Shown here one piece after another: positions 8,004 to 60,582 of a DNA stretch of 64,000 nt. This DNA comes from an uncultured Bacilli bacterium (GTDB taxonomy: Bacteria; Bacillota_I; Bacilli_A; RF39; UBA660). Location of the stretch: contig CAKOQQ010000001.1 of the NCBI GenBank assembly GCA_934101425.1, positions 35,781-99,780 on the forward strand, given 5' to 3'. Position numbers and translations under genes: made by a program. The notes beneath the pieces were generated by a model that was not told the origin of the DNA, ran no database searches, and was given only the letters and a program-made list of their open reading frames with translations. Position 1 is the first letter of the stretch; every line of letters begins with the position of its first letter.

Positions 8004-8031
8004 AGAAAAAAAATGAACTTTTATGTTCATT
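8004..8031 (-). terminator. Rho-independent terminator after pilin gene 8027..8950
   Basis: Hairpin AATGAAC-ataaaa-GTTCATT followed by a run of 9 T on the minus strand. It overlaps the stop codon. Confidence 0.6.
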
Positions 8032-8950
8032 TTAATTCTATTCTTTTTCCATGATTTTTAAACCATTTAATTACAACTGCATTTTTAACATCGTCGCCGC
8101 CAGTAATAGTTAATATTTTATATTTACTATTATACCAATTATTTTCTTCATAATAAGGGACATAAAACCCATTTTCTTTATCTATTGCATATAATATAAC
8201 ACCTTTATTAGCTTTTATGGTACTACCAAAAGGAAAATCTATTTTGTCAAAAGCTCCTGAAGTAAATCCGGCAGTAATACCAAAGGCACTAATTTGTAAA
8301 TCCATTGGTAATGGGGCATCAAACGGCAAATAAAGTGATGTAATACCTATATACTTTTTGCCATTAGAAGTAAATGTCAAGTTAGCATCTGATAAATCTA
8401 TTAGTTTATTAGCTTGTGAAGTAAAACCATCATTATAAGTAGAAACAGTACTAAATTTGTATCCTGTATCATCTAAAAGCCAAGTTGTATTAGTTAAATC
8501 TGTAACATCTTTATTTAATTCAATATAATTATCGGGTGTTTCTTCTTTTCCGTCTTCTTTCACTTCTTCAAATGTGCAATTCTTTTCACTTTCTTTATTA
8601 CTGTTTATAGTACCGTTAGCACTTATTTCTATGCAATAACCCGAAATGTACATTTTTCCATATGCATTACCTTCTTTATCATACTTTAAATATCCTTTGC
8701 TAGCCTTATCACCATCATAAGTAAATGGGCTATTCGATAAATCAATTTTATCTGTGTTTATATTATCCATTATATTTTGCAAATAATATGCTTTTGCTGC
8801 ACTCACTACATTTCTTGCGCTTGCTTCTGCCGCTGCTTTTTTAGAGTCTTCTATAATATTTAATACTGCTGGAGTTGCTATTAGTGCTATTACTGCTAGT
8901 ATCACTATTACGGCTAGTAACTCTATTAGTGTAAACCCTTTCTTTTTCAT
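8027..8950 (-). CDS. Type IV pilin-like protein with a class III signal peptide. One of three paralogs of about 300 aa.
   Basis: The N-terminus MKKKGFTLIELLAVIVILAVIALIATPAVLNIIEDSKK is a prepilin motif (G|FTLIE with Glu at +5). The first ~125 aa are near-identical to 38575..39474 and 44825..45733 (shared GYC(I/V)E...NGT motif), and the C-terminus is divergent. I trimmed the start to the internal ATG. Confidence 0.8.
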   Translation of the reverse strand: MKKKGFTLIELLAVIVILAVIALIATPAVLNIIEDSKKAAAEASARNVVSAAKAYYLQNIMDNINTDKIDLSNSPFTYDGDKASKGYLKYDKEGNAYGKMYISGYCIEISANGTINSNKESEKNCTFEEVKEDGKEETPDNYIELNKDVTDLTNTTWLLDDTGYKFSTVSTYNDGFTSQANKLIDLSDANLTFTSNGKKYIGITSLYLPFDAPLPMDLQISAFGITAGFTSGAFDKIDFPFGSTIKANKGVILYAIDKENGFYVPYYEENNWYNSKYKILTITGGDDVKNAVVIKWFKNHGKRIELK

Positions 8951-13149: not shown

Positions 13150-14069
13150 TTTTCCACCTCACATAATTTCTTACATGTAGGATAGCTTTTATAAACTACT
13201 TTAGCAGGTTCAATTCTATCATCGCTTTTAAAGTATAGGCCATACTTATAAGCATTATTGTGTGCCCACTCTTTAGTCTTTTCATCGGCAAAATATAGAT
13301 TAGCACTTATTCCATAACTATATAATTCACTATCCGGATTTATAATATAATCACATTTAGTATTACAGTCATCATCACTACTATTCCATACTTCTAAAAA
13401 CTTATCATAACTTCTATAACCAATACTTATTTTTATTTTATTTTCAGAATCAGTTATCATTTTACTTAATCTATCATAAAATATTGGATTAAGACCATAA
13501 TTATTATCTCTTCTATTCATATCTTTTGCTGATCCTAATATATAAAATATACCATTTTTATATTCTAGATTTCCCCATTTATTATCATTAAATTTAGTTA
13601 TTATAGTAGATGTTCTTGTTTCATTATTATTTTTATTTTCAGAATTTATCTTTGATATTTCTTTTTTATTATATTCTTTAATACTATTTTCTAGTTTTAA
13701 GTATTCTTCTTCTACTACGTTTTTATTTTCTTCTACTTCTTTTTTATTCTTTTCTAAAATATTTATATTTTCTAAATTAGCGTATTTAAGGCAATAATTA
13801 ATATTTGATTTATATTCATCTAAGCCTTTAAATGAATATATAATTAAATACATTACTGATACAATAACTAGTGAAAGCAAAAATGATTTAAAAAAAGATT
13901 TCTTTGTTTTACTACTTCTAATACCAGTAATAAGATTATATATGATTTTTATTAAAAATATAAATGGTATTAAAGCACAAATAAATAATACTACATACTT
14001 AGTATATTTAATTATGTTAAATATTAGTTTCAAATCTTCTAACTTAGTACAATCTAAGAGTATATACAT
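13146..14069 (-). CDS. Membrane-anchored VanY/M15B-like D,D-carboxypeptidase domain protein with degenerate zinc ligands (probable pseudo-peptidase)
   Basis: N-terminal transmembrane helices and a charged coiled region. The C-terminus has the SIGYRSYD motif typical of M15B. In the expected SxHxxGxAxD block it reads SELYSYGISANL (His to Leu, Asp to Asn). In the expected EPWH block it reads IEPAKVVY (His to Lys). The neighbouring motif EWAHNNAYKYGLYF is conserved. Confidence 0.55.
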   Translation of the reverse strand: MYILLDCTKLEDLKLIFNIIKYTKYVVLFICALIPFIFLIKIIYNLITGIRSSKTKKSFFKSFLLSLVIVSVMYLIIYSFKGLDEYKSNINYCLKYANLENINILEKNKKEVEENKNVVEEEYLKLENSIKEYNKKEISKINSENKNNNETRTSTIITKFNDNKWGNLEYKNGIFYILGSAKDMNRRDNNYGLNPIFYDRLSKMITDSENKIKISIGYRSYDKFLEVWNSSDDDCNTKCDYIINPDSELYSYGISANLYFADEKTKEWAHNNAYKYGLYFKSDDRIEPAKVVYKSYPTCKKLCEVEK

Positions 14070-16738: not shown

Positions 16739-16746
16739 ATATCCTC

Positions 16747-16932
16747 CTAAAACTTAACTACTTTTTTTAGTTTCTTATTAAATTCTATTCTACTCATCAT
16801 TATAGCTCTTCCACAATTAAGACATTTAATCTTAATATCAGCACCTACTCTTGTTACTTCCCATTCATTAGTACCACAAGGATGAGCTTTTTTCATAATA
16901 ACAATACTTCCAACTTGATACATCTTATCCAT
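16747..16932 (-). CDS. DUF951 family small protein (YyzM-like)
   Basis: 61 aa containing CGTNEW...CLNCG. It lies in the ychF-parB neighbourhood, as it does in Bacillus. Confidence 0.55.
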   Translation of the reverse strand: MDKMYQVGSIVIMKKAHPCGTNEWEVTRVGADIKIKCLNCGRAIMMSRIEFNKKLKKVVKF

Positions 16933-17725
16933 TTCTTACCACCAATTGATCATATGGAATCGAAATATCATGTTTCTTTAATTCTTCAAATATTTCTTTT
17001 CTTAAAGTTCTTTGAACTGCAAAATGTGCTCCTGGTTTAGTTGTAACTGTAACTCTATAAGCTAGGCTAGAAGCATCATATGAGTTTATTCCAAGTATTG
17101 TTATATCGCCTTTTAAATCTTTCATAGTTTTAGATAATCTACTAAATAGATTATTTAAAACTTTTTCTAATTTATCTAAATCTTCTTCATAAGCTATAGG
17201 AATATCTATAATAGCTAAATCATTTGATACTGTATGATTTACTACTTCAGTAATATTTCTATTAGCTATCATAAATACTTCACCTTCATATGATTTTATT
17301 TTAGTAGTTTTAAGTCCCATATAAATAACATCGCCTCTAAAACCACTAATAGTAACATTATCACCAACTTCAAATTGATTTTCAAGTATTATAGTTATAC
17401 CAGATATAAAATCTTTTAAAGTATCTTGAACTGCAAGTCCAACTACTAAACTAAATACTCCAAGTGAAGCAATTAGTGATTTAGTATCAACATTATATAC
17501 CTCTAAAATCATAAGTAAAGCAATTATATATAAGAAATACTTAACTATATTAGTAGTTAATTGTCTTAATGTATTATGCTTTTTTTCATCCATAATTTTA
17601 GATTTACGACTAAATACGTTTAAAATTATTTTCTTTATTATCTTATATAAAATAGTAGTTACTATAAATATAATAATAGGGGCATAAAATCTCTTATCGA
17701 GAATTATACTTAATATATGTTTCAT
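16925..17725 (-). CDS. MscS-family mechanosensitive ion channel
   Basis: N-terminal transmembrane helices plus the MscS beta domain (GITIILENQFEVGDNVTISGFRGDVIYMGLKTTKIKSYEGEVFMIANRNI). Confidence 0.75.
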   Translation of the reverse strand: MKHILSIILDKRFYAPIIIFIVTTILYKIIKKIILNVFSRKSKIMDEKKHNTLRQLTTNIVKYFLYIIALLMILEVYNVDTKSLIASLGVFSLVVGLAVQDTLKDFISGITIILENQFEVGDNVTISGFRGDVIYMGLKTTKIKSYEGEVFMIANRNITEVVNHTVSNDLAIIDIPIAYEEDLDKLEKVLNNLFSRLSKTMKDLKGDITILGINSYDASSLAYRVTVTTKPGAHFAVQRTLRKEIFEELKKHDISIPYDQLVVRNG

Positions 17726-17728
17726 ATA

Positions 17729-18598
17729 TTACTCCTTTACATTTAATATTTCTAAAATTCTATTTAAATCTGCAACATTAGTAAAAGATATTTCAATTTT
17801 TTTATCTTTTATTTTAATTTTAGTATCAAGTTTATCTCTTAATAAATCTTCTACATACTTATAATCATTATTATCAACTTTTTTAGTAATTTTAACTTTC
17901 TTTTCTTCTTTTGAAGAAATATCTTCTACATCACGTACTGTAATATTTTCTTCATCTATTTTATGAGCTAACCTAATAATTTCTTCATCACTTTCAAGCT
18001 TACTTAATGCTCTAGCATGCCCCATACTTATTTTACCTTTAGAAACTAATTCTTGAACTTCACTAGGTAATCTAAGCAAACCAATTACATTAGTTATATA
18101 ACTTCTACTTTTACCAACTTTAGTACTTAAATTTTCATGAGTCATATGACTCTTTTCTAATAATTGTTTATAAGCTAAAGCTTCTTCAATTGGATTTAAA
18201 TTTTCTCTTTGAATATTTTCTAGTAATGAAATTTCTGCCATTTGTTCATCAGTAAATGGTCTTACTATTGCAGGAACTTTATCTAAACCAGCTAATTTAG
18301 AAGCTCTATATCTTCTTTCACCAGCAATAATTTCATAACCTTTAACACTCTTTTTAACAATAATAGGTTGAATAATACCATGTTCTTTAATTGATACTGC
18401 AAGTTCAGTTAACTTTTCAGGATCAAATTCTTTTCTAGGTTGATAAGGATTAGGTCTTAATTCAGATACATCAATTTCTACTATTTCTTCTTTAGGAGTA
18501 GATTCATAAATCTTTTTTTCGATACCCTCTAAATCTAAATTTTCATTATTGAATAATTGTTCTAACCCCATACCTAAAGCTCTTTTTCTATTTTCCAT
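17729..18598 (-). CDS. parB: Chromosome partitioning protein ParB/Spo0J
   Basis: ParB box (IQPIIVKK...YEIIAGERRYRAS) and an HTH. Its start overlaps the end of parA. Confidence 0.85.
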   Translation of the reverse strand: MENRKRALGMGLEQLFNNENLDLEGIEKKIYESTPKEEIVEIDVSELRPNPYQPRKEFDPEKLTELAVSIKEHGIIQPIIVKKSVKGYEIIAGERRYRASKLAGLDKVPAIVRPFTDEQMAEISLLENIQRENLNPIEEALAYKQLLEKSHMTHENLSTKVGKSRSYITNVIGLLRLPSEVQELVSKGKISMGHARALSKLESDEEIIRLAHKIDEENITVRDVEDISSKEEKKVKITKKVDNNDYKYVEDLLRDKLDTKIKIKDKKIEISFTNVADLNRILEILNVKE

Positions 18599-19373
18599 TT
18601 CTTAAAATAACCTCCTTTGCTAAATTAAGATATGCATCAGTACCTTTATTTCTTGGATCATAAGCAATAATTGGTTTACCATGTGATGGTGCTTCTGATA
18701 ATCTAACTAATCTAGGAATTATAGTATCATATACTTTTTCCTTAAAATAACTTCTTACATCTTCAGCTACTTCAAGTCCTAGTAATGTTCTACTATCTAA
18801 CATAGTTAGTAAAACACCTTCTATACTTAAAGTAGGATTTAAGTTCTTTTGTGCAAACATAATAGTATTTATAAGTTGCATAACACCTTCTAGTGCAAAA
18901 AATTCACATTGAATAGGTATTAATACTGAATCTGCTGCAGTTAATGCATTAGTAGTTAAAATACCTAAACTAGGTGGACAATCAATTATTATGTAATCAA
19001 ATACTTCTTTAGCTGCTTCAATATGTTTTTTTAGTTGCATACTTCTATTAAAAGTATTATCCACACTGCCCATTTGAATAAATTCAACATCTATACCAGC
19101 TAAGTTAACAGTAGCAGGTATTATATATAAATTTTTAAACTTTGTTTTAATAATAACTTCTTTTAAATTAGCTTTATTAGTTAATAATTCATATACGCTT
19201 TTATTATAATCTTTTTTAGATACGCCAAGTCCTGTAGTGCTATTACCTTGAGGATCTAGGTCTATTAAAAGGGCTTTTTTACCTAAAACACCTAATGATG
19301 CTGATAAATTTATACTAGTAGTAGTCTTACCTACACCGCCTTTTTGATTAACTAACGCTATAATTTTGCCCAT
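18588..19373 (-). CDS. parA: Chromosome partitioning ATPase ParA/Soj
   Basis: Deviant Walker A motif KGGVGKTTTSINL. 261 aa. Confidence 0.85.
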   Translation of the reverse strand: MGKIIALVNQKGGVGKTTTSINLSASLGVLGKKALLIDLDPQGNSTTGLGVSKKDYNKSVYELLTNKANLKEVIIKTKFKNLYIIPATVNLAGIDVEFIQMGSVDNTFNRSMQLKKHIEAAKEVFDYIIIDCPPSLGILTTNALTAADSVLIPIQCEFFALEGVMQLINTIMFAQKNLNPTLSIEGVLLTMLDSRTLLGLEVAEDVRSYFKEKVYDTIIPRLVRLSEAPSHGKPIIAYDPRNKGTDAYLNLAKEVILRNGK

Positions 19374-19493
19374 ATTATCACCATTTCTAATACTCTTTTA
19401 ACATATATTATTTTATCATAAATAGTCTAAAAAAAAAAGTAAATATATAATAAGTTAAAGTATTTTAATATTTTATTACACATAAATTTTATT

Positions 19494-19823
19494 ATGAAAG
19501 AATTTCCGCCAAATATAAATCCCGAGTATTTTTCTTTATTAGCAGTTATAAGTGCTTATGTATATGAAAATGATTATAATGCAAATGAATTAAATTCAAT
19601 AGGTAACTGGTTAATATTATTAGGTCAATTTTTACTTACAACAGCCGCACAACAGCAACTTATAAACGCTAGATACTCAAATAATACAGGTAGTAATATT
19701 AAAAGTGATAGCGATAACCATTATACTAAAAATAAAGAAAAAGCTAATAAAGAAGACTTAGATAATTTAAAGAAAATAGTAGATGAAATTTTAGTTGAAC
19801 TAAAAAGAATAAATGATAAATAA
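19494..19823 (+). CDS. Hypothetical small protein. The only plus-strand gene in this region.
   Basis: 109 aa with a hydrophobic or amphipathic central segment (NWLILLGQFLLTTAAQQQL) and a K/E/D-rich C-terminus. I do not recognise a family. Confidence 0.35.
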   Translation: MKEFPPNINPEYFSLLAVISAYVYENDYNANELNSIGNWLILLGQFLLTTAAQQQLINARYSNNTGSNIKSDSDNHYTKNKEKANKEDLDNLKKIVDEILVELKRINDK

Positions 19824-19827
19824 TCAT

Positions 19828-21441
19828 TTATTCACTTAATTCTTTTTCTAATTTACCTTGTTTATCACCAAGTATACTTCTTTGTTCATTTACTTTATTT
19901 ATAGCAGAATTTATAGTATCTATATAAGTTACAAAGTTTGGTGTACCATTTGTTCTTACCCCAAGAGCTGATGATGTAAATGTATATTTTAGAAGTCCTA
20001 ATTCTTTATCAATCGAATTACCTATTTTTAATACTTGGATACTATTAAAAGTAGTTTCATTATATATTCTATCTATTTCATCTTGTAAAGCTACCATTTC
20101 CTCCATGATAGAATTTATATCAGAATTACTATTACCATTAGCAGCTTTAACTGATAATTCATTCATTCTTTGTAATATACTATGAGTTTCTGTTAGTGCT
20201 CTTTCCATTATCTTTATCGCACTAATTAGATTTCGTTTATATGAATCCATATCATCAGGGTTTAATTCTTTGCCTACTAATTTATCTAATATAACCTTAT
20301 TAGCAGTTATTTTATCATCAGTTATATTATTTATATCAATAATAGTTAAGCCTGTTGCACTAAATTTCAAACTAGAATCATTTACTGAATTAGCTATTTC
20401 ATCTAAATTTCTTTTAAATAAAGTATTTGCTTCTATAATAAGTGCTTTTTTATCTATTTCAGTATTAGTAGCCATTAAAGCTTGTACATGTAACTCTTGA
20501 GCTCTAGATAATACTTTAGTATATAAAGCTCTTTTACAAGCCTCATCTGCACATGATTCTAAAGATTTACTATATTCTAATGAATTTTGATATGCTCCAA
20601 ATATACTTCTTTGTTCACTTACTTTATTTATAGCAGATTCTATTCTTTTCATATAATCTTTAAAATCAGGAGTTGTTCTTTGCTTTACATCTAATCCTTC
20701 TGAATTAATAGTATATTTTAATAAATCTACTATTTCATTAAACATATTATCTTCTTGTAAAACTTTTTCATTTTGAAAAGATGTTTCATTATATATTCTA
20801 TCTATTCCATCTTGTAGCTCTATTAGTTCATCCATAATAGAAGCTATATCAGAACTTGTATTAGTATCATTTGCAGCTTTAACTGATAATTCATTCATTT
20901 TTTGTAATATGCCATGAGTTTCTGTTAGTGCTCCTTCAGCAACTATAATTTCACGTAATAATAAATCATTAAAATTGGCACTTGACTTACTAACACAACT
21001 AGCACTAGTAGTAAACTCTTCTATTAAAAATTTATCTTCTTCTATACTATAATAATTACAATATTTATCATTATAAAATACTGCTGACACTAGTAATCTA
21101 TTAGTCTTACGAATATATCCTGTAGTATCATTCAAAGCTTTATCCATACTTACCGTTTCATTTTCTACTGTTACACCTTTAAGTTCTAAAACATTAATTT
21201 TACCTTCTGTTAATGAATAATAACTATCTTTCTCATCACCATTTAAAAAATCATAATTATTTACACTTCTCATTACACTTTGTACAGAAGCTTTAAAAGC
21301 TTCTCTTTTTGAGTCTTCTACAATATTTAATACAGCAGGTACCGCTATTGCTGCAATTATTGCTAGTATTACTATTACTGCGAGTAACTCTATTAGTGTA
21401 AATCCTTTCTTACTTTTATAATTACCTTTTACTTTCTTCAT
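19828..21441 (-). CDS. Type IV pilin-like protein fused to two tandem flagellin D1-like units (pilin-flagellin chimera)
   Basis: The N-terminus MKKVKGNYKSKKGFTLIELLAVIVILAIIAAIAVPAVLNIVEDSKRE is a prepilin signal. The body contains AEGALTETHGILQKMNELSVKAANDTNTSSDIASIMDELIELQDGIDRIYNETSFQNEKVL. This is near-identical to the B. subtilis Hag D1 N-helix (AEGALTETHAILQRVRELVVQAGN...EIDGISNRTEFNGKKLL). It also contains IESAINKVSEQRSIFGAYQNSLEYS, matching the Hag D1 C-helix (AINQVSSQRAKLGAVQNRLEHT). A second unit follows (ALTETHSILQRMNELSVKAANGNSNSDINSIMEEMVALQDEIDRIYNETTFN; INSAINKVNEQRSILGDKQ). The flagellin D0 termini are absent. Confidence 0.85.
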   Translation of the reverse strand: MKKVKGNYKSKKGFTLIELLAVIVILAIIAAIAVPAVLNIVEDSKREAFKASVQSVMRSVNNYDFLNGDEKDSYYSLTEGKINVLELKGVTVENETVSMDKALNDTTGYIRKTNRLLVSAVFYNDKYCNYYSIEEDKFLIEEFTTSASCVSKSSANFNDLLLREIIVAEGALTETHGILQKMNELSVKAANDTNTSSDIASIMDELIELQDGIDRIYNETSFQNEKVLQEDNMFNEIVDLLKYTINSEGLDVKQRTTPDFKDYMKRIESAINKVSEQRSIFGAYQNSLEYSKSLESCADEACKRALYTKVLSRAQELHVQALMATNTEIDKKALIIEANTLFKRNLDEIANSVNDSSLKFSATGLTIIDINNITDDKITANKVILDKLVGKELNPDDMDSYKRNLISAIKIMERALTETHSILQRMNELSVKAANGNSNSDINSIMEEMVALQDEIDRIYNETTFNSIQVLKIGNSIDKELGLLKYTFTSSALGVRTNGTPNFVTYIDTINSAINKVNEQRSILGDKQGKLEKELSE

Positions 21442-21502
21442 AATATCCCTTACTCTCTACTATAACAAATATAGCATATTTTAAACAAAAAAGGAAGACC
21501 AA

Positions 21503-21751
21503 TTAGTCTTCCATAAGTCCTACATATTCAAATATGGTTTGTGCTAAATCTAAGTCTGTAACTGCTTCTACAACTTTTACACCATCATTTAAGAATTCAT
21601 GTAATAGTTCGTATGAATCTGTTACTTCTTTTGCATCATCAGTTGTTTTTACACATACATAATAATTTTCATCTTCATATATAGCTTGTCTTAATATTAA
21701 ATATTTTTCACCATTGCCTAGTGTCATTACTTGATTAATTCTATTTTCCAT
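21503..21751 (-). CDS. Small acidic protein, possibly DUF1292 (YrzB-like)
   Basis: 82 aa. The pattern VMTLGNGEKYLILRQAIYEDENYYVCVKT, followed by an acidic C-terminus, resembles YrzB family proteins. Confidence 0.35.
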   Translation of the reverse strand: MENRINQVMTLGNGEKYLILRQAIYEDENYYVCVKTTDDAKEVTDSYELLHEFLNDGVKVVEAVTDLDLAQTIFEYVGLMED

Positions 21752-21759
21752 AAACTCTC

Positions 21760-24666
21760 CTATCTAGTTCTTCCACCAGTAGTATTTTCATTTACTTCTT
21801 CTGGAGGAGTTAATCCTAATGCTGCATAGAAGTTATTAGCATCATCTAATGAAATACTACTATCCATACTATTTTCTGATTGTACTTCTACAGGTGCTGG
21901 TGGTTCTACTGGCAATTCATAAATAGGTTCACTGCCAGCATGCCCAACTGGAACAAATTCTTCTTTTATAAGTTCATCATTTTCATTAACTTTTGAATCT
22001 TTTGATTCTTCAGGAGTTTTATTTACGTCATCATATGAAATTCCTAATGATTCATAGAAATCTTTAACATCATCTTCTGAAATTCCACTATCTAATTTAT
22101 TTTCACTTGAACTTGGATTTCCATTTGGATTATTTTTATCAACTGTAACATTTACTTGATTTCCATTTTTTTCTGCATCAATTATAGAATCTCCATAATT
22201 TGCATCTATATTACCATTATCATTATATACATATTCTCCACTACCATTTATTATAGATTCACCTGGATTTAATATAATTTCACTTAAATCTGGTGTAACT
22301 GGAGTTGGATCCGGAGTTACAGGTGTTGGATCTGGTGTAACTGGAGTTGGGTCCGGAGTTACAGGCGTTGGATCCGGTGTAACTGGAGTTGGATCTGGTG
22401 TAACTGGAGTTGGATCTGGTGTAACTGGAGTTGGATCCGGAGTTACAGGTGTTGGATCTGGTGTAACTGGAGTTGGGTCCGGAGTTACAGGCGTTGGATC
22501 CGGTGTAACTGGAGTTGGGTCTGGAGTTACAGGTGTTGGATCAGTATTTGATGGTGTAGAAGGTGTAGTTGGAGTCTTATCAGGAGTTGTTTTATCTGTC
22601 TTTGTTGGTGTTTCAGTATTAGTATTATTTTTTTCTTCTTCTAAATCATCAAAGTTAAATGTAGGCATTTCTACTTCATCTACTATGCCAGTAGTTGGAG
22701 CATCACTTATATTTCTAGTATTTGCATCACAACCTTTTAATCCTACTAAAAGCCCTGCTACTACTAATCCTCCAGCAGCAATTTGTTTCTTATGTTTTTT
22801 AACCCATTCTAATGCTTCTTTACCTTTTTCTCTCATTTTTTTACCAAGGTCTTTTAAAGCAACTATTACGCCTTTCTTTTCAGCGTCATTTTTTAATTCG
22901 TTAGATGCTGGTTCAAAAGCAACAACTGGAACTACTGTTTTACCTTTATCTTTTTCAGGTTCTACTACTGGAGCAACTGGTACTACTGTAGTTTTTTCTT
23001 CCTTTTCTTCTTCTTTAGTTTCTTCAGCAGCTGGAACAAGAATATTTTTAGGAATTTCAACCTTAAGTAATTCTTTACCATCTGGTCCAAAAATTACTAT
23101 AAAGTTTCTTCCATCTTTATCTTGGTTAACAACACCATTTAATGGTGTTGCACCTGTACCAAGTACAAATGGAACTGCTGTTTTATCTTTTTCTTCAGGT
23201 TCTACTACTGGAGCAACTGGTGTCACTGGAGTTTCTTCTTTAGCTTTTTCTTCAGCTTCTTTCTTTTCTGCTTCTTTTTTAGCTTTTATAGAAGCATCTA
23301 AATCACCAACTATATGATCTATAGTTTCAGAAACATTGAATTCAATAAATGCTAATCTTGATTTAGTAGCTGCTATACCTGCAACTAATTCATCTCTTTC
23401 AATTCTATCTAATCTTTGTTGTGATTTATTTATTTTCTTAGCATCTTCAGCTATTTCTTTATTTATTTTTTCTATTTCTGTTTTTAATGGTTTTGTTAAT
23501 TCTCTTAATCTATCAATATTACCACTTAACATGCCTTTTTCACTTCTTAAAGTATGCATTGTAGTCATATTTCTAGTAATTTCTTGATTTTTTCTTTCAA
23601 TTTCAGCTCTTAGGTGTTTTCTCATTGGATGGTTTTGACTAGGTAGACCATCCATTTCTTTTTGTCTTTGTTCAATTATTCTTTGAGCTGATATATTTGC
23701 AGCTTCTAACTTACGAACTTCATTATTAATTTCTGCAATTCTAGCTCCATTAGCTTTAATTTCATCAGTATAACTATCTAAGTCATTTTGTTTAGATTCT
23801 TTTATTTCAGTTAATCTAGCACCTAAAACACCACGATAATTATCTTCATTTGATAATTTTTCTTCTAATTCAGCTAATCTGGGTTCATATTTAGCTAATG
23901 CATCTTCTAGTTGTATTCTTTCTTCACTTCTAGCTGCTGCATCTCTAAGTAAGAATTGTTTAGGTAATCTATCTCTATATTCTTCTAACTTAGCCATTAC
24001 AACTTCTTCACTAATGTTACCTCTTTCAACATCAGTAATTAAATCATTTAATGAAGTTGCAAAATTATATTCAGCTAACATAGATTCAGTACTAGCATTC
24101 TTAATTTCAGTATTTAATCTAGTTATTTCAGCTCTATCAGCATCTTTTAATGCTTCAATATCAACTGTTGCACTACCTGTAGTAGCTTCTTCTTGTTCTT
24201 TTATTGCTTCTTCAAGTTCATGTATGTTAGCATTTAATTCTTCTAAGTCGCTATTTCTTTTAGCAGCTCTTCTTTCTAATCTTTGAATATTAGAATCTAA
24301 AGTAGTAAGTAAAGCTTGATCATTATATTGTTCAGCTAATTCTCTATTTTTTCTTTCTTGTTCTAATCTTCTATCGATACCAATAATATCAGCTGCAAGT
24401 CTATCACTTCTAGCAATCATATCTTCTAAGTCTACTTTATTTTGTTCAACACTATTGTCATATAAAGCAACTCTACCAGTTCTATAATTTTCATCATTTT
24501 TTAATTTTTCTTCTAATTCGCTAATTCTTCTTTCAGCACGTTCAGTAACTCTTCTTGCTTGATCAAATCTTTTAGCTTGTTCACTAATAGTTACTTCATC
24601 TAATCCGTCAATAGGTAATTGACTTTTTAAATCTCTTAGACTTTTTAATATTTCTTCTCTTTCCAT
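21760..24666 (-). CDS. Large membrane protein with four parts. There is an N-terminal coiled coil of about 470 aa, then a single transmembrane segment, then a PT-rich linker of 14 tandem DPTPVTP repeats, and a C-terminal region.
   Basis: 968 aa with no signal peptide. The first ~470 aa is a heptad-rich R/E/L/A/D-rich sequence. The hydrophobic segment is IAAGGLVVAGLLVGL. The tandem repeat is (DPTPVTP)x14. Two C-terminal motifs have the pattern DDxxxFYxxLG(I/L). Confidence 0.6.
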   Translation of the reverse strand: MEREEILKSLRDLKSQLPIDGLDEVTISEQAKRFDQARRVTERAERRISELEEKLKNDENYRTGRVALYDNSVEQNKVDLEDMIARSDRLAADIIGIDRRLEQERKNRELAEQYNDQALLTTLDSNIQRLERRAAKRNSDLEELNANIHELEEAIKEQEEATTGSATVDIEALKDADRAEITRLNTEIKNASTESMLAEYNFATSLNDLITDVERGNISEEVVMAKLEEYRDRLPKQFLLRDAAARSEERIQLEDALAKYEPRLAELEEKLSNEDNYRGVLGARLTEIKESKQNDLDSYTDEIKANGARIAEINNEVRKLEAANISAQRIIEQRQKEMDGLPSQNHPMRKHLRAEIERKNQEITRNMTTMHTLRSEKGMLSGNIDRLRELTKPLKTEIEKINKEIAEDAKKINKSQQRLDRIERDELVAGIAATKSRLAFIEFNVSETIDHIVGDLDASIKAKKEAEKKEAEEKAKEETPVTPVAPVVEPEEKDKTAVPFVLGTGATPLNGVVNQDKDGRNFIVIFGPDGKELLKVEIPKNILVPAAEETKEEEKEEKTTVVPVAPVVEPEKDKGKTVVPVVAFEPASNELKNDAEKKGVIVALKDLGKKMREKGKEALEWVKKHKKQIAAGGLVVAGLLVGLKGCDANTRNISDAPTTGIVDEVEMPTFNFDDLEEEKNNTNTETPTKTDKTTPDKTPTTPSTPSNTDPTPVTPDPTPVTPDPTPVTPDPTPVTPDPTPVTPDPTPVTPDPTPVTPDPTPVTPDPTPVTPDPTPVTPDPTPVTPDPTPVTPDLSEIILNPGESIINGSGEYVYNDNGNIDANYGDSIIDAEKNGNQVNVTVDKNNPNGNPSSSENKLDSGISEDDVKDFYESLGISYDDVNKTPEESKDSKVNENDELIKEEFVPVGHAGSEPIYELPVEPPAPVEVQSENSMDSSISLDDANNFYAALGLTPPEEVNENTTGGRTR
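22292..22542. repeat. Coding tandem repeat with a 21-nt unit (42-nt super-unit), about 12 copies, encoding DPTPVTP
   Basis: ggtgtaactggagttggatcc / ggagttacaggtgttggatct alternate on the plus strand within CDS 21760..24666. Confidence 0.85.
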
Positions 24667-32382: not shown

Positions 32383-32412
32383 TTTACAAAAAAAGATAGA
32401 ATAATCTATCTT
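32383..32412 (-). terminator. Rho-independent terminator of pilin paralog A
   Basis: AAGATAGA-ataa-TCTATCTT followed by TTTTTTTG on the minus strand. It overlaps the stop codon. Confidence 0.6.
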
Positions 32413-33647
32413 AATTTATCTCTACTTACTTCTATAACTGGGCGCACACCGGGGCCGCTTGCATTAGCCACGTTGTTGTCGTGGCTCAAGATGCCAATGT
32501 AGTAAACGGTAAAAGCGGTGTTAAAATTGCCGGAATATGCAGTATTTGTCCAGTATGCACCGGCACTAGAATCAGCTACATTACATCCATATGTTGTACA
32601 TTCTCTTGTATTATCAAATAGCCATGCATATCTGTTTGTTCCTGCTGCTCCTTTGTATTCTGTATTTGAATTTGTATGGAAGTAATAACGGTTATTATTC
32701 CAATTTGGATATCCTGTTATTTTTGCTATTTCACTTGCTTCTATTAGTCTAGCTGTACTTTTAACAGCACCATTCCAAGAAGCTATATCATTTTCTAATT
32801 GTGTTTTTACTTCAACTGGACCATTGGCATTTTTTCCACTTGATGCCCATGCAACTTTTGCTGTTGTATTATGATCTAGTAGTAAATTAACTGTATTATT
32901 TCCTTCATCATTAAATGCATACCATTTCATACATCCATTACTTTTACTAGTATTTGATGTAGCTTCTTCTTTAGAACAAACACTATTACTATTTGGATTA
33001 AAATATATAGCTGTTCCATTTGCATATTTATTATTTGATACATATACATTTCTATATACTGTCGAGCTTATTCCTTTTGTATCTGTAGCTGTATATTTTA
33101 CTTGATATATTCCTTCAGCACTCATCACTAAATTACTTTTATCTATAACTATATTTGATATGGCATTACCATCAGAATCAGTTGCAGAGGCACCAAGTTC
33201 AGTATAAGTAGCATTTAAATTATAAGTAACCATTGGTGATCCATTAAAATTTATTATAGGAGACTTTTCTCCATCTCTAGTAGTAATAGTACTTTCTACT
33301 ATATCATAAGTATAAGTTTCACCTTTTTTCTTTATTTCAATTGTAAGAGCATCATCAAAATATTTATCATCATTAGGATTTTTTACTTCTTTTTTTATTA
33401 GTCCTGAACTTTTTAATTGACCTAATGTTATTTTAACAACAAATTCTTCTTTTCTTGGAAGTAAGCCTGAATTAGCACTTGCATAAGCCTGAACTGCTTC
33501 TATTATTGTACTTATTTGTGTATTATAAGCTTTTTCTTTTGATTGCTTTATATATTTATTTACTGATGGTACTGCAATTACTAGTATTAGCGACAATATA
33601 ACTATTACTGCTAGTAATTCTACTAATGTAAAACCTTTCTTTTTCAT
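32406..33647 (-). CDS. Pilin-like protein (class III signal) with a DUF5011 Ig-like domain and a C-terminal DUF1566/lectin-like domain. Tandem paralog A.
   Basis: The N-terminus is MKKKGFTLVELLAVIVILSLILVIAVPSVNKYIKQSKEKAY. The Ig-like segment is GSPMVTYNLNATYTELGASATDSDGNAI...YQVKYTATDTKGISSTVYRNVYV. The C-terminal domain (MKWYAF...ARLIEASEIAKITGYPNW...YWTNTAY...GVRPVIEVS) resembles DUF1566. Confidence 0.7.
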   Translation of the reverse strand: MKKKGFTLVELLAVIVILSLILVIAVPSVNKYIKQSKEKAYNTQISTIIEAVQAYASANSGLLPRKEEFVVKITLGQLKSSGLIKKEVKNPNDDKYFDDALTIEIKKKGETYTYDIVESTITTRDGEKSPIINFNGSPMVTYNLNATYTELGASATDSDGNAISNIVIDKSNLVMSAEGIYQVKYTATDTKGISSTVYRNVYVSNNKYANGTAIYFNPNSNSVCSKEEATSNTSKSNGCMKWYAFNDEGNNTVNLLLDHNTTAKVAWASSGKNANGPVEVKTQLENDIASWNGAVKSTARLIEASEIAKITGYPNWNNNRYYFHTNSNTEYKGAAGTNRYAWLFDNTRECTTYGCNVADSSAGAYWTNTAYSGNFNTAFTVYYIGILSHDNNVANASGPGVRPVIEVSRDKLR

Positions 33648-33669
33648 ATTATTCCTACTTTCTACATTA

Positions 33670-33698
33670 ATTATATTTATTTATCTTTTATAAGTCAA
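33670..33698 (-). promoter_or_regulatory. Perfect consensus sigma-A promoter TTGACT-17-TATAAT for paralog A
   Basis: Minus strand: -35 TTGACT (plus 33693..33698), a 17-nt spacer, and -10 TATAAT (plus 33670..33675). It lies directly downstream of paralog B's terminator. Confidence 0.6.
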
Positions 33699-33708
33699 GA
33701 AATAAAAA

Positions 33709-33728
33709 AAGATAGAATATTCTATCTT
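33709..33728 (-). terminator. Rho-independent terminator of pilin paralog B
   Basis: Perfect 20-bp palindrome AAGATAGAATATTCTATCTT followed by a run of 7 T. Confidence 0.6.
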
Positions 33729-35002
33729 AATTTACTTTTTAATACGGTAATAACTGGGCGAACACCGAGGAAGTCTGAATCAGCCACGTCGGTGCTGTAG
33801 AAGGAGCCCTCGTTGGACACGAACCAAGCGAAGCCAGAACTGCCGGAATATGCAGTATTTGTCCAGTATCCATAAGTACTAGAATCTGCTACATTACATC
33901 CATATGTTGTACATTTATATGTATTATCAAATAGCCATGCATATTTGTTTGTTCCTGCTGCTCCTTTATATTCTGTTTGTGTATTATCATGAAAATAATA
34001 CCCGTTATTATTCCAATTTGGATATCCTGTTATAGTAGCTATTTCACTTGCTTCTATTAGTCTAGGGTTTAAACTACTTTTCCAAGCTTTTGTATCGCTT
34101 TTTAGTTGTTTTAATGCTGTAATTGGGCCTTTACTATTATTTCCATAACTCCCATACTCCGCTTCTGTTCCACCAGCTTCAATATAATCTTCTTTTGATG
34201 CCCACGCAACTTCATCTGTCGTATTATGGTCTAGTATTAACTTTATATAAAGACTTCCATCATCTAAAAAACTATACCATTTCATACACCCATTACTTTT
34301 ACTTGTATTTATACTAGCTTCTTCTTTAGAACAAACACTATTACTGTTAGGATTAAAATATATAGTTGTTCCATTTGCATATTTATCTTTTATTACATAT
34401 ACATTTCTATATACTGTTGAGCTTATTCCTTTTGTATCTGTTACTGTATACTTTACTTGATATATTCCTTCAGTACTCATAACTAAATTACTTTTATTTA
34501 TAACTATATTTGTTAAAGCTTTTCCATCAGAATCAGTTGCTGAGGCACCTAAATCATTATATGTATCATTTAAATTATAAATAACCATTGGTGATCCATT
34601 TAAAGTTATCTTAGGAGCTTCTTCTCCATCTCTAGTAGTAATAGTGTTTTCTACTACTTCATATATATAATTTTCTTTATTTTTCTTTATTTTAATTGTA
34701 AGTGCATCATCAAAGTATTTATCATCATTAGGATTTTTTACTTCTTCTTTTATTAACCCTGCACTTTTTAATTGACCTAATGTTATTTTAACAGATATAT
34801 TTTCTCTATTTGGAAGTAACTCAAGATTTGTGCTTGCATAAGCCTGTGCTGCTTCTATTATTGTACTTATTTGTGCATCATATGCTTTTTCTTTTGATTG
34901 CTTTATATATTTATTTACTGATGGTACTGCAATTACTAGTACTAGTGATAATATAATTATTACTGCTAATAATTCTACTAATGTGAAACCTTTCTTTTTC
35001 AT
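33722..35002 (-). CDS. Pilin-like protein with DUF5011 Ig-like and DUF1566-like domains. Tandem paralog B.
   Basis: 426 aa. It has the same N-terminal prepilin sequence and the same C-terminal GVRPVITV...KLR ending as paralogs A and C. Confidence 0.7.
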   Translation of the reverse strand: MKKKGFTLVELLAVIIILSLVLVIAVPSVNKYIKQSKEKAYDAQISTIIEAAQAYASTNLELLPNRENISVKITLGQLKSAGLIKEEVKNPNDDKYFDDALTIKIKKNKENYIYEVVENTITTRDGEEAPKITLNGSPMVIYNLNDTYNDLGASATDSDGKALTNIVINKSNLVMSTEGIYQVKYTVTDTKGISSTVYRNVYVIKDKYANGTTIYFNPNSNSVCSKEEASINTSKSNGCMKWYSFLDDGSLYIKLILDHNTTDEVAWASKEDYIEAGGTEAEYGSYGNNSKGPITALKQLKSDTKAWKSSLNPRLIEASEIATITGYPNWNNNGYYFHDNTQTEYKGAAGTNKYAWLFDNTYKCTTYGCNVADSSTYGYWTNTAYSGSSGFAWFVSNEGSFYSTDVADSDFLGVRPVITVLKSKLR

Positions 35003-35021
35003 ATTATTCCTACTTTCTACA

Positions 35022-35050
35022 TTAATTATATTTATTTATCTTTTATAAGT
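35022..35050 (-). promoter_or_regulatory. Perfect consensus sigma-A promoter TTGACT-17-TATAAT for paralog B
   Basis: -35 at plus 35045..35050, a 17-nt spacer, and -10 at plus 35022..35027. Confidence 0.6.
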
Positions 35051-35062
35051 CAAGAAATAAAA

Positions 35063-35082
35063 AAGATAGAATATTCTATCTT
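35063..35082 (-). terminator. Rho-independent terminator of pilin paralog C
   Basis: The same AAGATAGAATATTCTATCTT palindrome followed by a T-run. Confidence 0.6.
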
Positions 35083-36332
35083 AATATACTTCTTGATACA
35101 GTGATAACTGGGCGCACACCGTAATTTGAACGGACAACTTGATAATAACGTAATACTCCATCAGAATCAATTATCCAAGCATAATCATTAAATCTAGTAT
35201 ATGCAGTGTTTGTCCAATATCCAAAAGTACTAGAATCAGCTACATTACATCCATATGTTGTACAAGAGCTTGTATTATCAAATAGCCATGCATATTTGTT
35301 TGTTCCAACACTTCCTGTATATTCTGTTGTACTATTATTATGCAAATAATAATAATCTGCACCAGCTGTCCAACTAGGATTATCAGTTATTGTAGCTATT
35401 TCACTTGCTTCTATTAGTCTAGCTGTACTTTTAATAGCACTATTCCAAGAAGCTATATCACTATTTAATTGTGTTAATACTTCTTGTGGGCCATCTTCAT
35501 TAGTACCACTAGATGCCCATGCAACTGTTGCTGTCGTATTATGATCTAATAATAAAGTCATTTTTTCACTAGTTCCATTATCTAATATACTATACCATTT
35601 CATACAACCTGTTTTAGTGCCTGTTGTGCTTACTGCTTCAGCACTAGTACATTTAGCATTTGTAACTGGGTTATAATAGTATACTCGACCACTTACTAAA
35701 TTAGATACTGCACCATCTCTTACTACTACATTTCTATATATTGTTGTAGTAGTTCCATATGAATCAGTTGCTGTATATTTAATATAATATACACCTTTTA
35801 CACTCATATCTAGTGATGATGAATCAACATTAACATCACTTATTACTTTTCCATTATAGTCATAGGCACTAGAGCCTTCTTCTTGATAAGAAGAATTTAT
35901 ACTATAATAAACTACTGTATTTCCTGTCAATTTTATTGAAGGACTATTATTAGTAGTTTCTCTTACCTTTATAGTATCCTCATCTATTTCATATGTATAT
36001 CTATTACCTTTTTTCTTTATAATAAAAGTTAATGCATCATCAAAGTATTTATCATTATAAGGATTTTTTGTATCATTTTTTACAATACCTTCTATCTTTA
36101 ATTGACCTAATGTTATTTTTATTATTTCATCATCGTTTTCTGGCAATATTTCATTATTCATGTTGGCATATGATTCTACAGCATCTAATAATTCACTTAT
36201 TTGAACTTTATATGCTTTTTCTTTTGATTGTTTTATATATCTATTTACTGATGGGACAGCAATTACTAATATTATTGATAATATTACTATTACAGCGAGT
36301 AACTCTACTAACGTAAATCCCTTTTTATTCAT
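35076..36332 (-). CDS. Pilin-like protein with DUF5011 Ig-like and DUF1566-like domains. Tandem paralog C.
   Basis: 418 aa. The N-terminus is MNKKGFTLVELLAVIVILSIILVIAVPSVNRYIKQSKEKAY. It shares the C-terminal domain and ends GVRPVITVSRSILR. Confidence 0.7.
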   Translation of the reverse strand: MNKKGFTLVELLAVIVILSIILVIAVPSVNRYIKQSKEKAYKVQISELLDAVESYANMNNEILPENDDEIIKITLGQLKIEGIVKNDTKNPYNDKYFDDALTFIIKKKGNRYTYEIDEDTIKVRETTNNSPSIKLTGNTVVYYSINSSYQEEGSSAYDYNGKVISDVNVDSSSLDMSVKGVYYIKYTATDSYGTTTTIYRNVVVRDGAVSNLVSGRVYYYNPVTNAKCTSAEAVSTTGTKTGCMKWYSILDNGTSEKMTLLLDHNTTATVAWASSGTNEDGPQEVLTQLNSDIASWNSAIKSTARLIEASEIATITDNPSWTAGADYYYLHNNSTTEYTGSVGTNKYAWLFDNTSSCTTYGCNVADSSTFGYWTNTAYTRFNDYAWIIDSDGVLRYYQVVRSNYGVRPVITVSRSILR

Positions 36333-38574: not shown

Positions 38575-39474
38575 CTATATTTTAGATAATACTGTTACTA
38601 ATCCTAAACTTGGTAAGTCAAGTGTCATATACCCATACTCACTATCAAACTCAGTTAATTCAATTAATGATACTTCTTCAGTATTAGGATTTATTAGCAT
38701 AACTAATAAATTATTCATTTCTTCTACTTTAGCGGCTTCACATGTAAATGTTAAAGTTATATTTTTATCATGAGTAAATGATAAAGTATTGCCTTCTTTT
38801 ATAGCTATATCATAAATAGGTGTTAAAGCATCATAATCTTCTACATTTACTTTTACTCCTGTAGTAGTTACTAAATTAGTTGTGTTTTTATTTAAAGCAT
38901 TAAGTAATTCTTCAAATGTAACTATTTCATCATCACTATTAAATCTTTCTACAGCCTTACTTACTAAAGTACTAGAATATCTTTTAGGATTAGATATATA
39001 TACTTTAATATTACTATTTCCAACTAAAATATTTTCTATGATAAAGCCTGCTCTACCATCTGTAAGTACTGGATTATCTTCTATTACTGGTGTTTCTATA
39101 GTGCATTCACTTTCATCTGTTTTAGTGCTTGTAATAGTTCCATTAGATGATACTTCAATGCAGTATCCTGATATATACATTTTACCACTTGCATTACCGT
39201 TAGTATCATAACTAAGTAATCCTTTTTTAGCTTGTTCTCCATCATATTTTAATGTGTTAGTGCTTAAATCAACATTAGAATTTGGCTTATTATCCATTTT
39301 ATTTTGCATATAATGTTTTTTTGCAGTGTCTACTATATTTCTTGCACTTGCTTCTGCTGCACTTTTCTTTGAGTCTTCTATAATATTTAATACTGCAGGG
39401 GTTGCAATTAGTGCTATTACTGCTAATATTACTATAACCGCTAATAGCTCTATTAATGTAAATCCTTTTTTCAT
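38575..39474 (-). CDS. Type IV pilin-like protein, paralog of 8027 and 44825
   Basis: MKKGFTLIELLAVIVILAVIALIATPAVLNIIEDSKK plus the shared ~125-aa N-terminal domain. I trimmed the start to the ATG that follows a GGAAG RBS. It appears co-transcribed with the upstream DUF368-like gene. Confidence 0.8.
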   Translation of the reverse strand: MKKGFTLIELLAVIVILAVIALIATPAVLNIIEDSKKSAAEASARNIVDTAKKHYMQNKMDNKPNSNVDLSTNTLKYDGEQAKKGLLSYDTNGNASGKMYISGYCIEVSSNGTITSTKTDESECTIETPVIEDNPVLTDGRAGFIIENILVGNSNIKVYISNPKRYSSTLVSKAVERFNSDDEIVTFEELLNALNKNTTNLVTTTGVKVNVEDYDALTPIYDIAIKEGNTLSFTHDKNITLTFTCEAAKVEEMNNLLVMLINPNTEEVSLIELTEFDSEYGYMTLDLPSLGLVTVLSKI

Positions 39475-44824: not shown

Positions 44825-45733
44825 CTATACCTTCATTGCAAACATCGTAGGGCCAAGGATTGGTAATGTTACAGTTGCATATCCATTTTTTTCGTCATAA
44901 TCACTTAAAGAAACAAAATATACTTTTCCAGTTTCAGAATCTACTTGTATAACTATTAAATCTTCTTTTGTTAGATTTTTAATACCTTCTGATTCTATAA
45001 TAAGTTCTATTTCTGAACTTGTTTCAAAAGATAATGTATTATTTTCTAAGATAGCGATATCATAAAAACTAGTAAATATTTCATAATTATTTAAATTAAT
45101 AACTTCGCCACTAGTATTTTTAATATTTTCTGTTGTATCAACAGACAAGTTAGTTAACATATCTTGTAAGTTCATTGTAGAATTTTCTTTATTGCGATTT
45201 TTTACTACTTCTCCAACAGTTTTGTTAAGATAAGCATCTGGCCTTGCTACATATGCGCCAATATTTGAGTTTCCTGATATAACTTTATTAACAGCAATAC
45301 CATTAAAAGCATCTGAAGCTACTGGATTATCAGTAGTTGTTGAATCATTTTCTATACTACATTCACTTTCTTTTACTTTGTCACTACTTACTGTTCCATC
45401 GCTTTTAATTTCTACACAGTAACCTGATACATACATTTTTCCATATGCATTACCATTCTTATCATAGCTTATAGATCCTTTAGTAGCTTGTTCACCATCA
45501 TATGCTAAAGTCTTTTTGGATAAGTCTATTGTTCCTATGCTTATGTTATCCATTAAATTTTGCATATAATATGATTTTGCTGCACTCACTATATTTCTTG
45601 CACTTGCTTCTGCTGCTGCTTTTTTAGAGTCTTCTATAATATTTAATACTGCAGGAGTTGCAATTAGTGCTATTACTGCTAGTATCACTATTACGGCTAA
45701 GAGCTCTATTAATGTAAATCCTTTCTTTTTCAT
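44825..45733 (-). CDS. Type IV pilin-like protein, paralog of 8027 and 38575
   Basis: MKKKGFTLIELLAVIVILAVIALIATPAVLNIIEDSKKAAAEASARNIVSAAK... Its N-terminal ~125 aa are near-identical to the other two. The C-terminal region is related to that of 38575. Confidence 0.8.
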   Translation of the reverse strand: MKKKGFTLIELLAVIVILAVIALIATPAVLNIIEDSKKAAAEASARNIVSAAKSYYMQNLMDNISIGTIDLSKKTLAYDGEQATKGSISYDKNGNAYGKMYVSGYCVEIKSDGTVSSDKVKESECSIENDSTTTDNPVASDAFNGIAVNKVISGNSNIGAYVARPDAYLNKTVGEVVKNRNKENSTMNLQDMLTNLSVDTTENIKNTSGEVINLNNYEIFTSFYDIAILENNTLSFETSSEIELIIESEGIKNLTKEDLIVIQVDSETGKVYFVSLSDYDEKNGYATVTLPILGPTMFAMKV

Positions 45734-60080: not shown

Positions 60081-60114
60081 CCTAATTACATAAATTATGT
60101 TAGGAGGTAAGTCA

Positions 60115-60573: not shown

Positions 60574-60582
60574 GAGGTTAAT

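Follow-up and report, generated by a model that had tools for sequence, protein, structure and literature searches.

Modular type IV pilins, the closest described systems to the protein presented here, include PilB and PilC of Streptococcus sanguinis, which carry a vWA and a lectin module respectively, and Raynaud et al. (2021) list 264 such architectures (PMC8179133). The term flagellin does not appear in the text of that paper or in the covered part of its supplements (Dataset S1 in part). Here we describe a gene that combines a pilin with parts of bacterial flagellin. It was found in a stretch of 64,000 nucleotides, called the window below, from an uncultured Bacilli bacterium (GenBank assembly GCA_934101425.1, contig CAKOQQ010000001.1, positions 35,781 to 99,780). 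The gene is located at 19828..21441 on the minus strand of the window and encodes 537 aa plus a stop codon. Its product, the chimera, has a type IV pilin module at the N-terminus and a tandem array of flagellin D1 units without D0 behind it. Judged by its sequence, the chimera is best classed among the modular type IV pilins, as one whose payload derives from flagellin, and not as a new category. It probably is a pilin of this kind or a pseudopilin and would display a ligand-binding D1 array, with host TLR5 as the leading candidate ligand.

Two flagellin systems are relevant to this proposal. The fragment called flagellin-cent (residues 54-222 of Bacillus subtilis flagellin) binds TLR5 via a hot spot of D1 and signals 269-1355-fold less than full-length flagellin, and the hot-spot residues also form the inter-protofilament contact in flagellar filaments (PMC5247705). 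According to the account of Clasen et al. given in PMC13353774, 'silent' flagellins bind TLR5 via D1 and do not signal, the D0 site being absent.

The flagellin-derived payload

The chimera matches the Flagellin_N family (Pfam: PF00669) with an E-value of 7.7e-26 in three stretches, which cover only positions 71-137 of the 139 profile positions, and the Flagellin_C family (Pfam: PF00700) with an E-value of 8.3e-6 in two stretches, which cover only positions 1-27 of 86. Both matches, as well as the N_methyl match described below, exceed the curated Pfam cut-offs. A preliminary description of the gene, made from the DNA letters and translated reading frames, had claimed two pairs of N-terminal and C-terminal D1 helices (N-D1 and C-D1) homologous to flagellin. 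Both pairs are recovered by Pfam and by our own flagellin hidden Markov model (HMM; 383 nodes, built from 15 ordinary flagellins), and the resemblance is far beyond chance. The peptides quoted there are located at residues 168-191, 214-223, 270-286 and 513-528. Among sequences of solved structures the closest is a B. subtilis flagellin (5gy2_C, E-value 1.9e-18). A relationship to FlgL (HAP3) was considered and rejected, as FlgL reaches 52 bits compared to 127 for Hag.

All parts of the gene lie on the minus strand. Unit 1 (20554..20973, residues 157-296) consists of an N-D1 (residues 165-231, nodes 73-139 of our HMM), a spacer or hairpin remnant and a proximal C-D1 (residues 260-296), with spacer and proximal C-D1 together matched at residues 236-291 to nodes 271-324. 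A Cys loop with the sequence CADEAC (20536..20553, Cys297 and Cys302) joins it to unit 2; its cysteines are invariant in our alignment A1 and present in seven of the eight members of alignment A2, P0175 being the exception. Unit 2 (20257..20535, residues 303-395) is degenerate and is made up of an N-D1-like helical hairpin (residues 309-354, nodes 85-129) and a linker resembling the segment that precedes C-D1. In unit 3 (19831..20256, residues 396-537) the N-D1 extends up to residue 472 and the proximal C-D1 covers residues 503-536; here the HMM matches residues 383-472 to nodes 47-137 and the spacer plus proximal C-D1, residues 472-533, to nodes 259-323. The chimera ends with unit 3 at the point where distal C-D1 and D0 would start. 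The earlier count of two therefore holds for the good units, to which the degenerate third N-D1 at residues 309-354 has to be added, and the paired C-D1 helices are homologous to those of flagellin but are present only in their proximal half.

Nodes 1-46 of our HMM, which stand for the N-terminal D0 and the spoke, find no match in the chimera, and neither do nodes 325-383, which stand for the distal C-D1 and the C-terminal D0. This agrees with the earlier statement that D0 is missing at both ends. Compared with filament flagellins, the N-D1 helices (ND1a and ND1b) are present in three copies, the middle one degenerate, while the N-terminal D0 and spoke (approximately the first 45 Flagellin_N positions), which include the type III export signal, are absent, as are a complete C-D1 and C-terminal D0, which are needed for FliS binding and polymerisation. 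The curated flagellin cut-offs are missed as well: many NCBIfam flagellin models match, but each by a score far under its threshold, and even the best of them, Hag, reaches 127.1 bits where 352 are required. Lacking D0, the predicted protein can serve neither as a subunit of flagellar filaments nor as a type III substrate. Judged by their alignment, the good units (N-D1 plus proximal C-D1) are the equivalent of the flagellin-cent fragment.

Units 1 and 3 are identical at 57% of positions over 128 aa and at 75% in N-D1. Their N-D1 shares 49-65% identity with true flagellins and 39-49% with the units of the distant relative P0003. By this measure units 1 and 3 resemble one another and true flagellins more than they do the P0003 units, a pattern that suggests concerted evolution or re-duplication.

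The AlphaFold2 (AF2) models are weak overall, with a mean predicted local distance difference test score (pLDDT) of 51 for a 3-sequence alignment and 56.5 for an 8-sequence alignment. In the flagellin part the expected helices were modelled with pLDDT 60-88, unit 2 being the best modelled one (81-88). The best Foldseek match in the PDB is again 5gy2_C, over all 169 target residues, with a template modelling score of 0.64 (target-normalised) and an E-value of 0.025. The structural overlay proposed in the preliminary description thus yields D1-like helices and flagellin as the top fold match, but falls short of Foldseek significance. A flagellin-enriched AF2 alignment was discarded, as all flagellins fell on unit 1 and D0 was forced onto unrelated regions.

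The prepilin signal and the pilin carrier

The chimera starts with a class III (prepilin) leader (21403..21441, residues 1-13), which is short and basic, has the sequence MKKVKGNYKSKKG with Gly at position -1 and is followed by Phe. The mature N-terminus, FTLIELLAVIVILAIIAAIAVPA (21334..21402), begins with FTLIELL and has the N-methylation motif of type IV pilins with Phe+1, Glu+5 and a hydrophobic alpha1-N helix of about 20 residues; AF2 models a helix at residues 16-61. This region matches N_methyl (Pfam: PF07963) at residues 9-33 with an E-value of 1.2e-8 and 34.6 bits (cut-off 21.2), and IV_pilin_GFxxxE (NCBIfam: TIGR02532) with 33.7 bits (cut-off 16.3). The canonical prepilin signal with Glu5 read from the sequence earlier is hence confirmed by two profiles, including the N-methylation motif search that had been recommended, above their curated cut-offs, and the chimera has all the hallmarks that a prepilin shows in its sequence. 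Among PDB sequences, the N-terminus matches PilE1 of S. sanguinis (8pfb_G, E-value 1.1e-5).

The pilin part is wider than the N-terminus that had been described and appears to form a whole pilin module of about 150 aa. The remainder of this module, which we call carrier type A, covers approximately residues 37-150 (20992..21333) and includes Cys128 and Cys149. Further N_methyl proteins have modules homologous to it.

In the 88% identical orthologue P0002 (L001 10001-11617), position -1 is Ala instead of Gly (KKKEA/FTLIELL, the slash marking the cleavage site), and its leader differs from that of the chimera at many positions. Two further candidate matches were rejected. The Pfam match to Chordopox_A33R (25.7 bits, residues 3-107) was considered spurious, an effect of the transmembrane helix and composition, and a reading as archaellin was dismissed with no archaeal flagellin family among the Pfam matches even at E-values up to 10. 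A comparison with PHROGs was uninformative.

Family and module shuffling

The architecture is rare. An exhaustive HMMER search against 1.84 billion representatives returned only 14 matches with E-values of 1e-30 or below. Full-length relatives are P0001, P0160 (627 aa), P0162 (617 aa), P0161 (389 aa), P0163 (393 aa) and P0175 (376 aa), together with P0002 and P0003 from a second database. In total about eight sequence clusters share the pilin-flagellin architecture among billions of proteins, all of them metagenomic and none of them named. The chimera had no match in the GTDB representative genomes, and a profile of eight members added only two fragments from a database of 5.8 billion clusters, in a search whose word pre-filter was swamped by ordinary flagellins. 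Our literature searches on pilin-flagellin fusions found none. These results bear out the earlier impression of an undescribed architecture, and the ortholog survey suggested at that time has recovered the 88% orthologue as well as distant full-length relatives.

The architecture is retained at 24-32% identity in P0003, P0160-P0163 and P0175. The layout throughout the family is an N-D1, a proximal C-D1, a Cys loop, a degenerate N-D1 hairpin and a linker, in this order, and it is present once or twice per protein. In a related low-GC (27%) organism, three tandem chimera genes encoding 631, 634 and 627 aa are found directly downstream of valS (L171/L173 of CAKOHZ010000002.1, a Bacilli metagenome-assembled genome from the Hadza, and L028 7982-12761).

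Carriers and payloads are found in different combinations. The payloads of the window type and of the P0003 type are homologous (z-score 31; unit 2 plus linker 6.9), whereas the globular pilin modules of the window type and of the P0003 group show no similarity (z-score -1.4). Carrier A is common to the chimera, P0175 (z-score 9.2) and P0084 (z-score 6.2), of which P0084 combines it with an unrelated payload of 400 aa. Carrier B, the pilin module of the P0003 type, is found in P0186 with a BspA-type leucine-rich repeat (LRR) payload (LRR_5, E-value 2e-53). It also occurs alone, as a pilin of 168 aa in Clostridium sp. CAG:1000 (HG000340.1, L170 6374-6880) and in a second stand-alone protein at L169 6520-7038 (stand-alone lengths 168-172 aa). 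The stand-alone carrier stops four residues past the last shared Cys, where the chimeras run into the D1 array. The chimera therefore has the features of a modular pilin, with N_methyl, Flagellin_N and Flagellin_C in one open reading frame (ORF), and we classify it as a variant of this group because its carrier and payload modules are separable and shuffled.

A second family with tandem D1 units and without D0 was also observed (P0164, P0165, P0166, P0176 and P0399-P0410, about 15 clusters, 469-681 aa). Its N-terminus, KGITLLALVITIIVL, is hydrophobic and pilin-like, lacks Glu5 and matches N_methyl only with an E-value of about 3e-3. The proteins have two to three D1 units and a conserved C-terminal domain with the pattern LYYTGT..E..WA; they are metagenomic and unnamed, and their genes are located among housekeeping genes. 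Two paralogues of this family (536 and 633 aa) are adjacent at L007 8329-11902, between the upp and transketolase genes. Flagellin cores without D0 on N-termini predicted to anchor in the membrane are thus a small, recurrent theme.

Paralogous prepilins and gene context

Seven prepilin genes in the window, including that of the chimera, encode a start of the form G/FTL[IV]ELLAVI, compared to zero expected by chance, and an eighth is found just beyond the window. Three of the paralogues combine N_methyl with an unknown C-terminal module; these are encoded at 8027..8950 (307 aa), 38575..39474 (299 aa) and 44825..45733 (302 aa), all on the minus strand. The other three are tandem modular prepilins of 413, 426 and 418 aa at 32406..36332 on the minus strand, with N_methyl, bacterial Ig-like domains and a Cys-containing C-terminal domain, which in two of the three has a weak match to DUF6273. 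The same Ig-like domain is carried by a GDSL-lipase protein at 37290-38519. In three paralogues in the window the first 30 mature residues are nearly those of the chimera, which makes it plausible, as far as sequence similarity can tell, that the four proteins would co-assemble into one filament.

The upstream control region (21440..21512, minus strand) was annotated from consensus matches only. It comprises a terminator-like hairpin of the ORF upstream (21512-21493), a promoter-like TTGTTA-17-TATTAT (21468-21440) and a purine-rich Shine-Dalgarno sequence, AAGGGA (21451-21446), before the ATG. Because of the promoter-like site and the terminator-like hairpin, the chimera gene seems to be its own transcription unit. 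The adjoining genes (82, 968, 455 and 109 aa) have no match in Pfam or PHROGs, and they are not conserved beside the P0003-type chimeras, so that no functional lead can be taken from them. A viral scan gave only N-terminal pilin matches to the chimera, and no sign of a phage origin.

Proposed function and alternative explanations

At the four hot-spot positions R89, L93, I111 and E114 (B. subtilis numbering), unit 3 has R/L/I/E, unit 1 has K/L/I/E and unit 2 has R/L/L/E. Most units of every relative, even of those with an overall identity of 24-32%, and most units of the second family retain the hot-spot residues as well. Together with the human gut origin and the missing D0, this makes TLR5 binding without signalling a candidate function, strong TLR5 agonism not being expected as D0 is absent. 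There is a loose precedent in another uncultured gut clade, which has an immunoactive pilin (PMC11680825).

From the protein sequence we infer processing, filament incorporation, surface display and a ligand as follows. The leader of 13 residues would be cut after Gly-1 by a prepilin peptidase. The alpha1-N helix, which is almost that of the paralogous pilins, would then anchor the chimera in the membrane and allow it to be extracted from there into a type IV filament, in which it would most likely be a subunit of low abundance or one at the tip. The C-terminal payload would thereby be displayed outside the cell. This payload is predicted to form an elongated, all-helical array of three D1 'central' bundles. 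Having lost D0 and the distal D1 helices, it would take no part in flagellar type III export, FliS binding or flagellar polymerisation. The array would instead act as a ligand-binding effector, with weak or non-signalling TLR5 binding of the 'silent' type possibly serving adhesion or immune modulation. The more specific proposal, made by analogy, that the pilus-borne array without D0 is a 'silent' TLR5 ligand for mucosal adhesion, or a competitive antagonist or decoy for anti-flagellin immunity, we consider doubtful.

Several observations weigh against a pilus-borne, TLR5-binding array. The interface-A residues N211, H215 and N219 are not kept in the chimera, and as the hot-spot residues have structural and filament-packing roles in true flagellins, their retention is no proof of TLR5 binding. 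In the AF2 model the pilin head (residues 24-156) is not reliably modelled, with a pLDDT of about 30 and a few predicted strands. The top Foldseek matches in the PDB are flagellins, all with E-values above 1e-3, which we attribute to the low confidence of the AF2 model. We searched for machinery genes in the window plus 10 kb of flank on each side (84 kb) and in the loci of the relatives. None of these contained a gene for a prepilin peptidase, an assembly ATPase or a platform protein, and a motif scan for T2SSE ATPases and A24 peptidases over 1.65 Mb of loci found none in the window or in close relatives. Members of the family are always located among housekeeping genes, and the pilins of the window are all large (at least 299 aa in seven of seven), with no obvious small major pilin seen.

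Some of these observations would also be expected if the chimera were a membrane-anchored surface protein that forms no filament. The class III signal would in that case serve processing and anchoring, and the D1 array would be a stalk or adhesin. Many archaeal proteins with class III signals use the signal for processing and N-terminal anchoring. None of the eight prepilin genes, which are scattered among housekeeping genes, has pilus machinery nearby, all paralogues are large (299-537 aa), and the second family with D1 repeats, without Glu5 and with its weak N_methyl match, suggests that a simple anchor can suffice. Yet Glu5 and the alpha1-N helix are strictly conserved in all paralogues and family members, which is a signature of selection for filament assembly, and carrier B exists on its own at 168 aa, a classical pilin size. 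We regard such an anchored protein as possible, though on the unlikely side, and prefer the modular pilin or pseudopilin.

The ligand of the array may also not be a host molecule. Since the hot-spot residues serve flagellar packing too, a self-associating or purely structural array is conceivable, in which the D1 patch packs units or neighbouring molecules onto each other and so bundles pili, aggregates cells or forms a rigid spacer. In flagellar filaments the hot spot is part of the contact between protofilaments (PMC5247705), the AF2 model shows a tandem array made of helices throughout, genes of the family occur in tandem arrays of two to three paralogues, and units 1 and 3 have been homogenised to the 75% identity in N-D1 given above. 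The chimera, however, lacks D0 and the distal D1 helices, on which the packing of flagellin largely relies, and the same carriers otherwise bear typical modules for ligand binding, such as BspA LRR and Ig-like domains. A role without host ligand thus appears improbable compared with the ligand-binding pilin.

Very improbable is a D1 array that docks on flagellar filaments, flagellin or flagellin-binding proteins of its own or of other bacteria, for example as a tether to motile neighbours or to interfere with their flagella. The only points in its favour are the homology of the units to the filament core and the retained packing patch, and against it there is no flagellar gene in the 84 kb, the chimera lacks the C-terminal regions that bind FliS and FliW, and the literature that we searched holds no precedent.

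Reality of the gene and its host organism

The 90% identity cluster of the chimera contains 52 sequence variants, and all 15 of its 15 listed members have a length of 537 aa. With these variants on well over 100 independent contigs from several studies, the chimera is not an assembly artefact. The orthologue P0002 keeps the gene neighbourhood of the chimera, and between the two the ratio of nonsynonymous to synonymous substitution rates (dN/dS) is 0.30 overall and 0.19-0.28 in four of the five regions tested. The GC content is uniform at about 26%. The chimera is a real gene under purifying selection. An artefact, in the form of a mis-assembly of pilin and flagellin genes, or a decaying, pseudogenised flagellin, has nothing but the odd architecture in its favour and is already refuted by these data and by the layout shared with relatives at 24-32% identity.

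In unit 3 (19831-20256) the comparison with P0002 gives a dN/dS of 0.81 on a dS of 0.067, while the dS of the other modules is 0.17-0.25. The low dS of unit 3 may be due to gene conversion between units or between strains.

Contigs with the chimera come from Hadza and other human-gut metagenomes, and the record name of one may point to a pig-gut study. The window belongs to the chromosome, lies close to the origin and contains ribosomal protein operons as well as parAB, ssb and ychF; its L2 protein carries the annotation 'MAG: Bacillales bacterium'. We also detected CotZ (E-value 5e-15), CotJB and CotJC (Mn-catalase family), encoded at 36496-36930 and 60097-61143 on the plus strand, whose presence points to a spore-former. 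Sporulation thus appears, from these gene matches, to be retained in this low-GC gut member of the Bacilli.

Other genes near the chimera

In the 968-aa protein next to the chimera (21760-24666, minus strand) the N-terminal half is a long coiled coil, and there are a single predicted transmembrane segment and about 13 PDPTPVT repeats that are nearly perfect. Its synteny with the chimera is kept on the contig of the 88% orthologue. Two proteins at 9819-10841 and 13146-14069 (minus strand) have an N-terminal transmembrane region, an Asn/Lys-rich low-complexity spacer and a cell-wall hydrolase-like C-terminus, which matches NlpC/P60 in one of them, and each gene is followed by a small lipoprotein-like gene. 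A similar hydrolase-like membrane protein is found near the chimeras of the related organism (L028 2340-3599).

A Cpn60/TCP1-family paralogue of 495 aa is encoded at 57719-59206 on the plus strand, directly downstream of a radical-SAM gene (55775-56980) and a DUF4130 gene (56980-57735), and these surroundings are unusual for a chaperonin homologue. Beyond the right flank, the gut contig L006 has a type II-A CRISPR-Cas system (15868-20561; Cas9, Cas1, Cas2 and Csn2) after bipA. At the same site the Hadza contig L005 has peptidase U32 and other genes, which indicates strain variation.

Significance and comparison with known systems

In the chimera, two filament systems meet that are as a rule kept apart. 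The conserved flagellin core, which is what innate immunity recognises, has been trimmed to the minimal TLR5-binding fragment, multiplied and placed on the pilins of uncultured gut Bacilli with reduced genomes. If the array binds TLR5, it would be a natural ligand without D0 that is predicted to bind without activating, and the TLR5 recognition surface would have been exapted from the flagellum to another filament system. This would bear on commensal tolerance, on anti-flagellin serology in inflammatory bowel disease and on the design of flagellin adjuvants and antagonists, and surveys of the gut 'flagellome' would overlook a class of TLR5 ligands. If the array does not bind TLR5, the chimera would still be a clear case of exaptation, in which a flagellin domain has become the payload of a pilin and has been shuffled between unrelated carriers.

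Archaellins have a class III signal and a type IV pilus-like assembly, and they are not homologous to bacterial flagellin. Their likeness to the chimera is therefore in name only, the chimera matching the bacterial Flagellin_N and Flagellin_C families. The p5 and p6 proteins of Sphingomonas sp. A1 have a role in alginate binding. They are among the PDB sequence matches of the chimera (PDB: 2ZBI, 3K8V, 3K8W) and resemble it as flagellin homologues exapted as non-motility, cell-surface binding proteins, but both termini of flagellin are retained in them, and they have neither a pilin module nor tandem D1 units.

Unlike Hag and FliC, the chimera is without D0, type III export signal and FliS site. 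Its good units span the N-D1 helices, the turn and the proximal C-D1, as does flagellin-cent of B. subtilis (PDB: 5GY2, PMC5247705), and they share 40-60% identity with B. subtilis flagellin in N-D1; flagellin-cent is engineered, whereas the chimera is natural, has three tandem units and is fused to a pilin. With the 'silent' flagellins of gut Lachnospiraceae, as they are summarised in PMC13353774, the chimera would share a gut commensal origin, a D1 that is a candidate TLR5 binder and the lack of the D0 signalling site. In that summary the silent flagellins are complete and filament-forming with a variant D0, while in the chimera D0 is wholly absent and the carrier is a pilin. The second family with tandem D1 units resembles the chimera in that two to three units lacking D0 follow a hydrophobic, pilin-like N-terminus. 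It differs in having no Cys loop and no degenerate alternating unit, and its units are closer to true flagellins.

PilB and PilC (PMC8179133) differ from the chimera in that its payload consists of tandem truncated flagellin D1 units and its gene lies outside a pilus operon. As in the modular pilins of that paper, in the chimera an IPR012902/N_methyl pilin module is combined with a domain foreign to pilus biology, one carrier is found with various payloads, and the effector is predicted to be presented on a filament. The chimera thus extends the catalogue of modular pilins by a flagellin-derived payload, a combination for which our literature searches found no earlier description.

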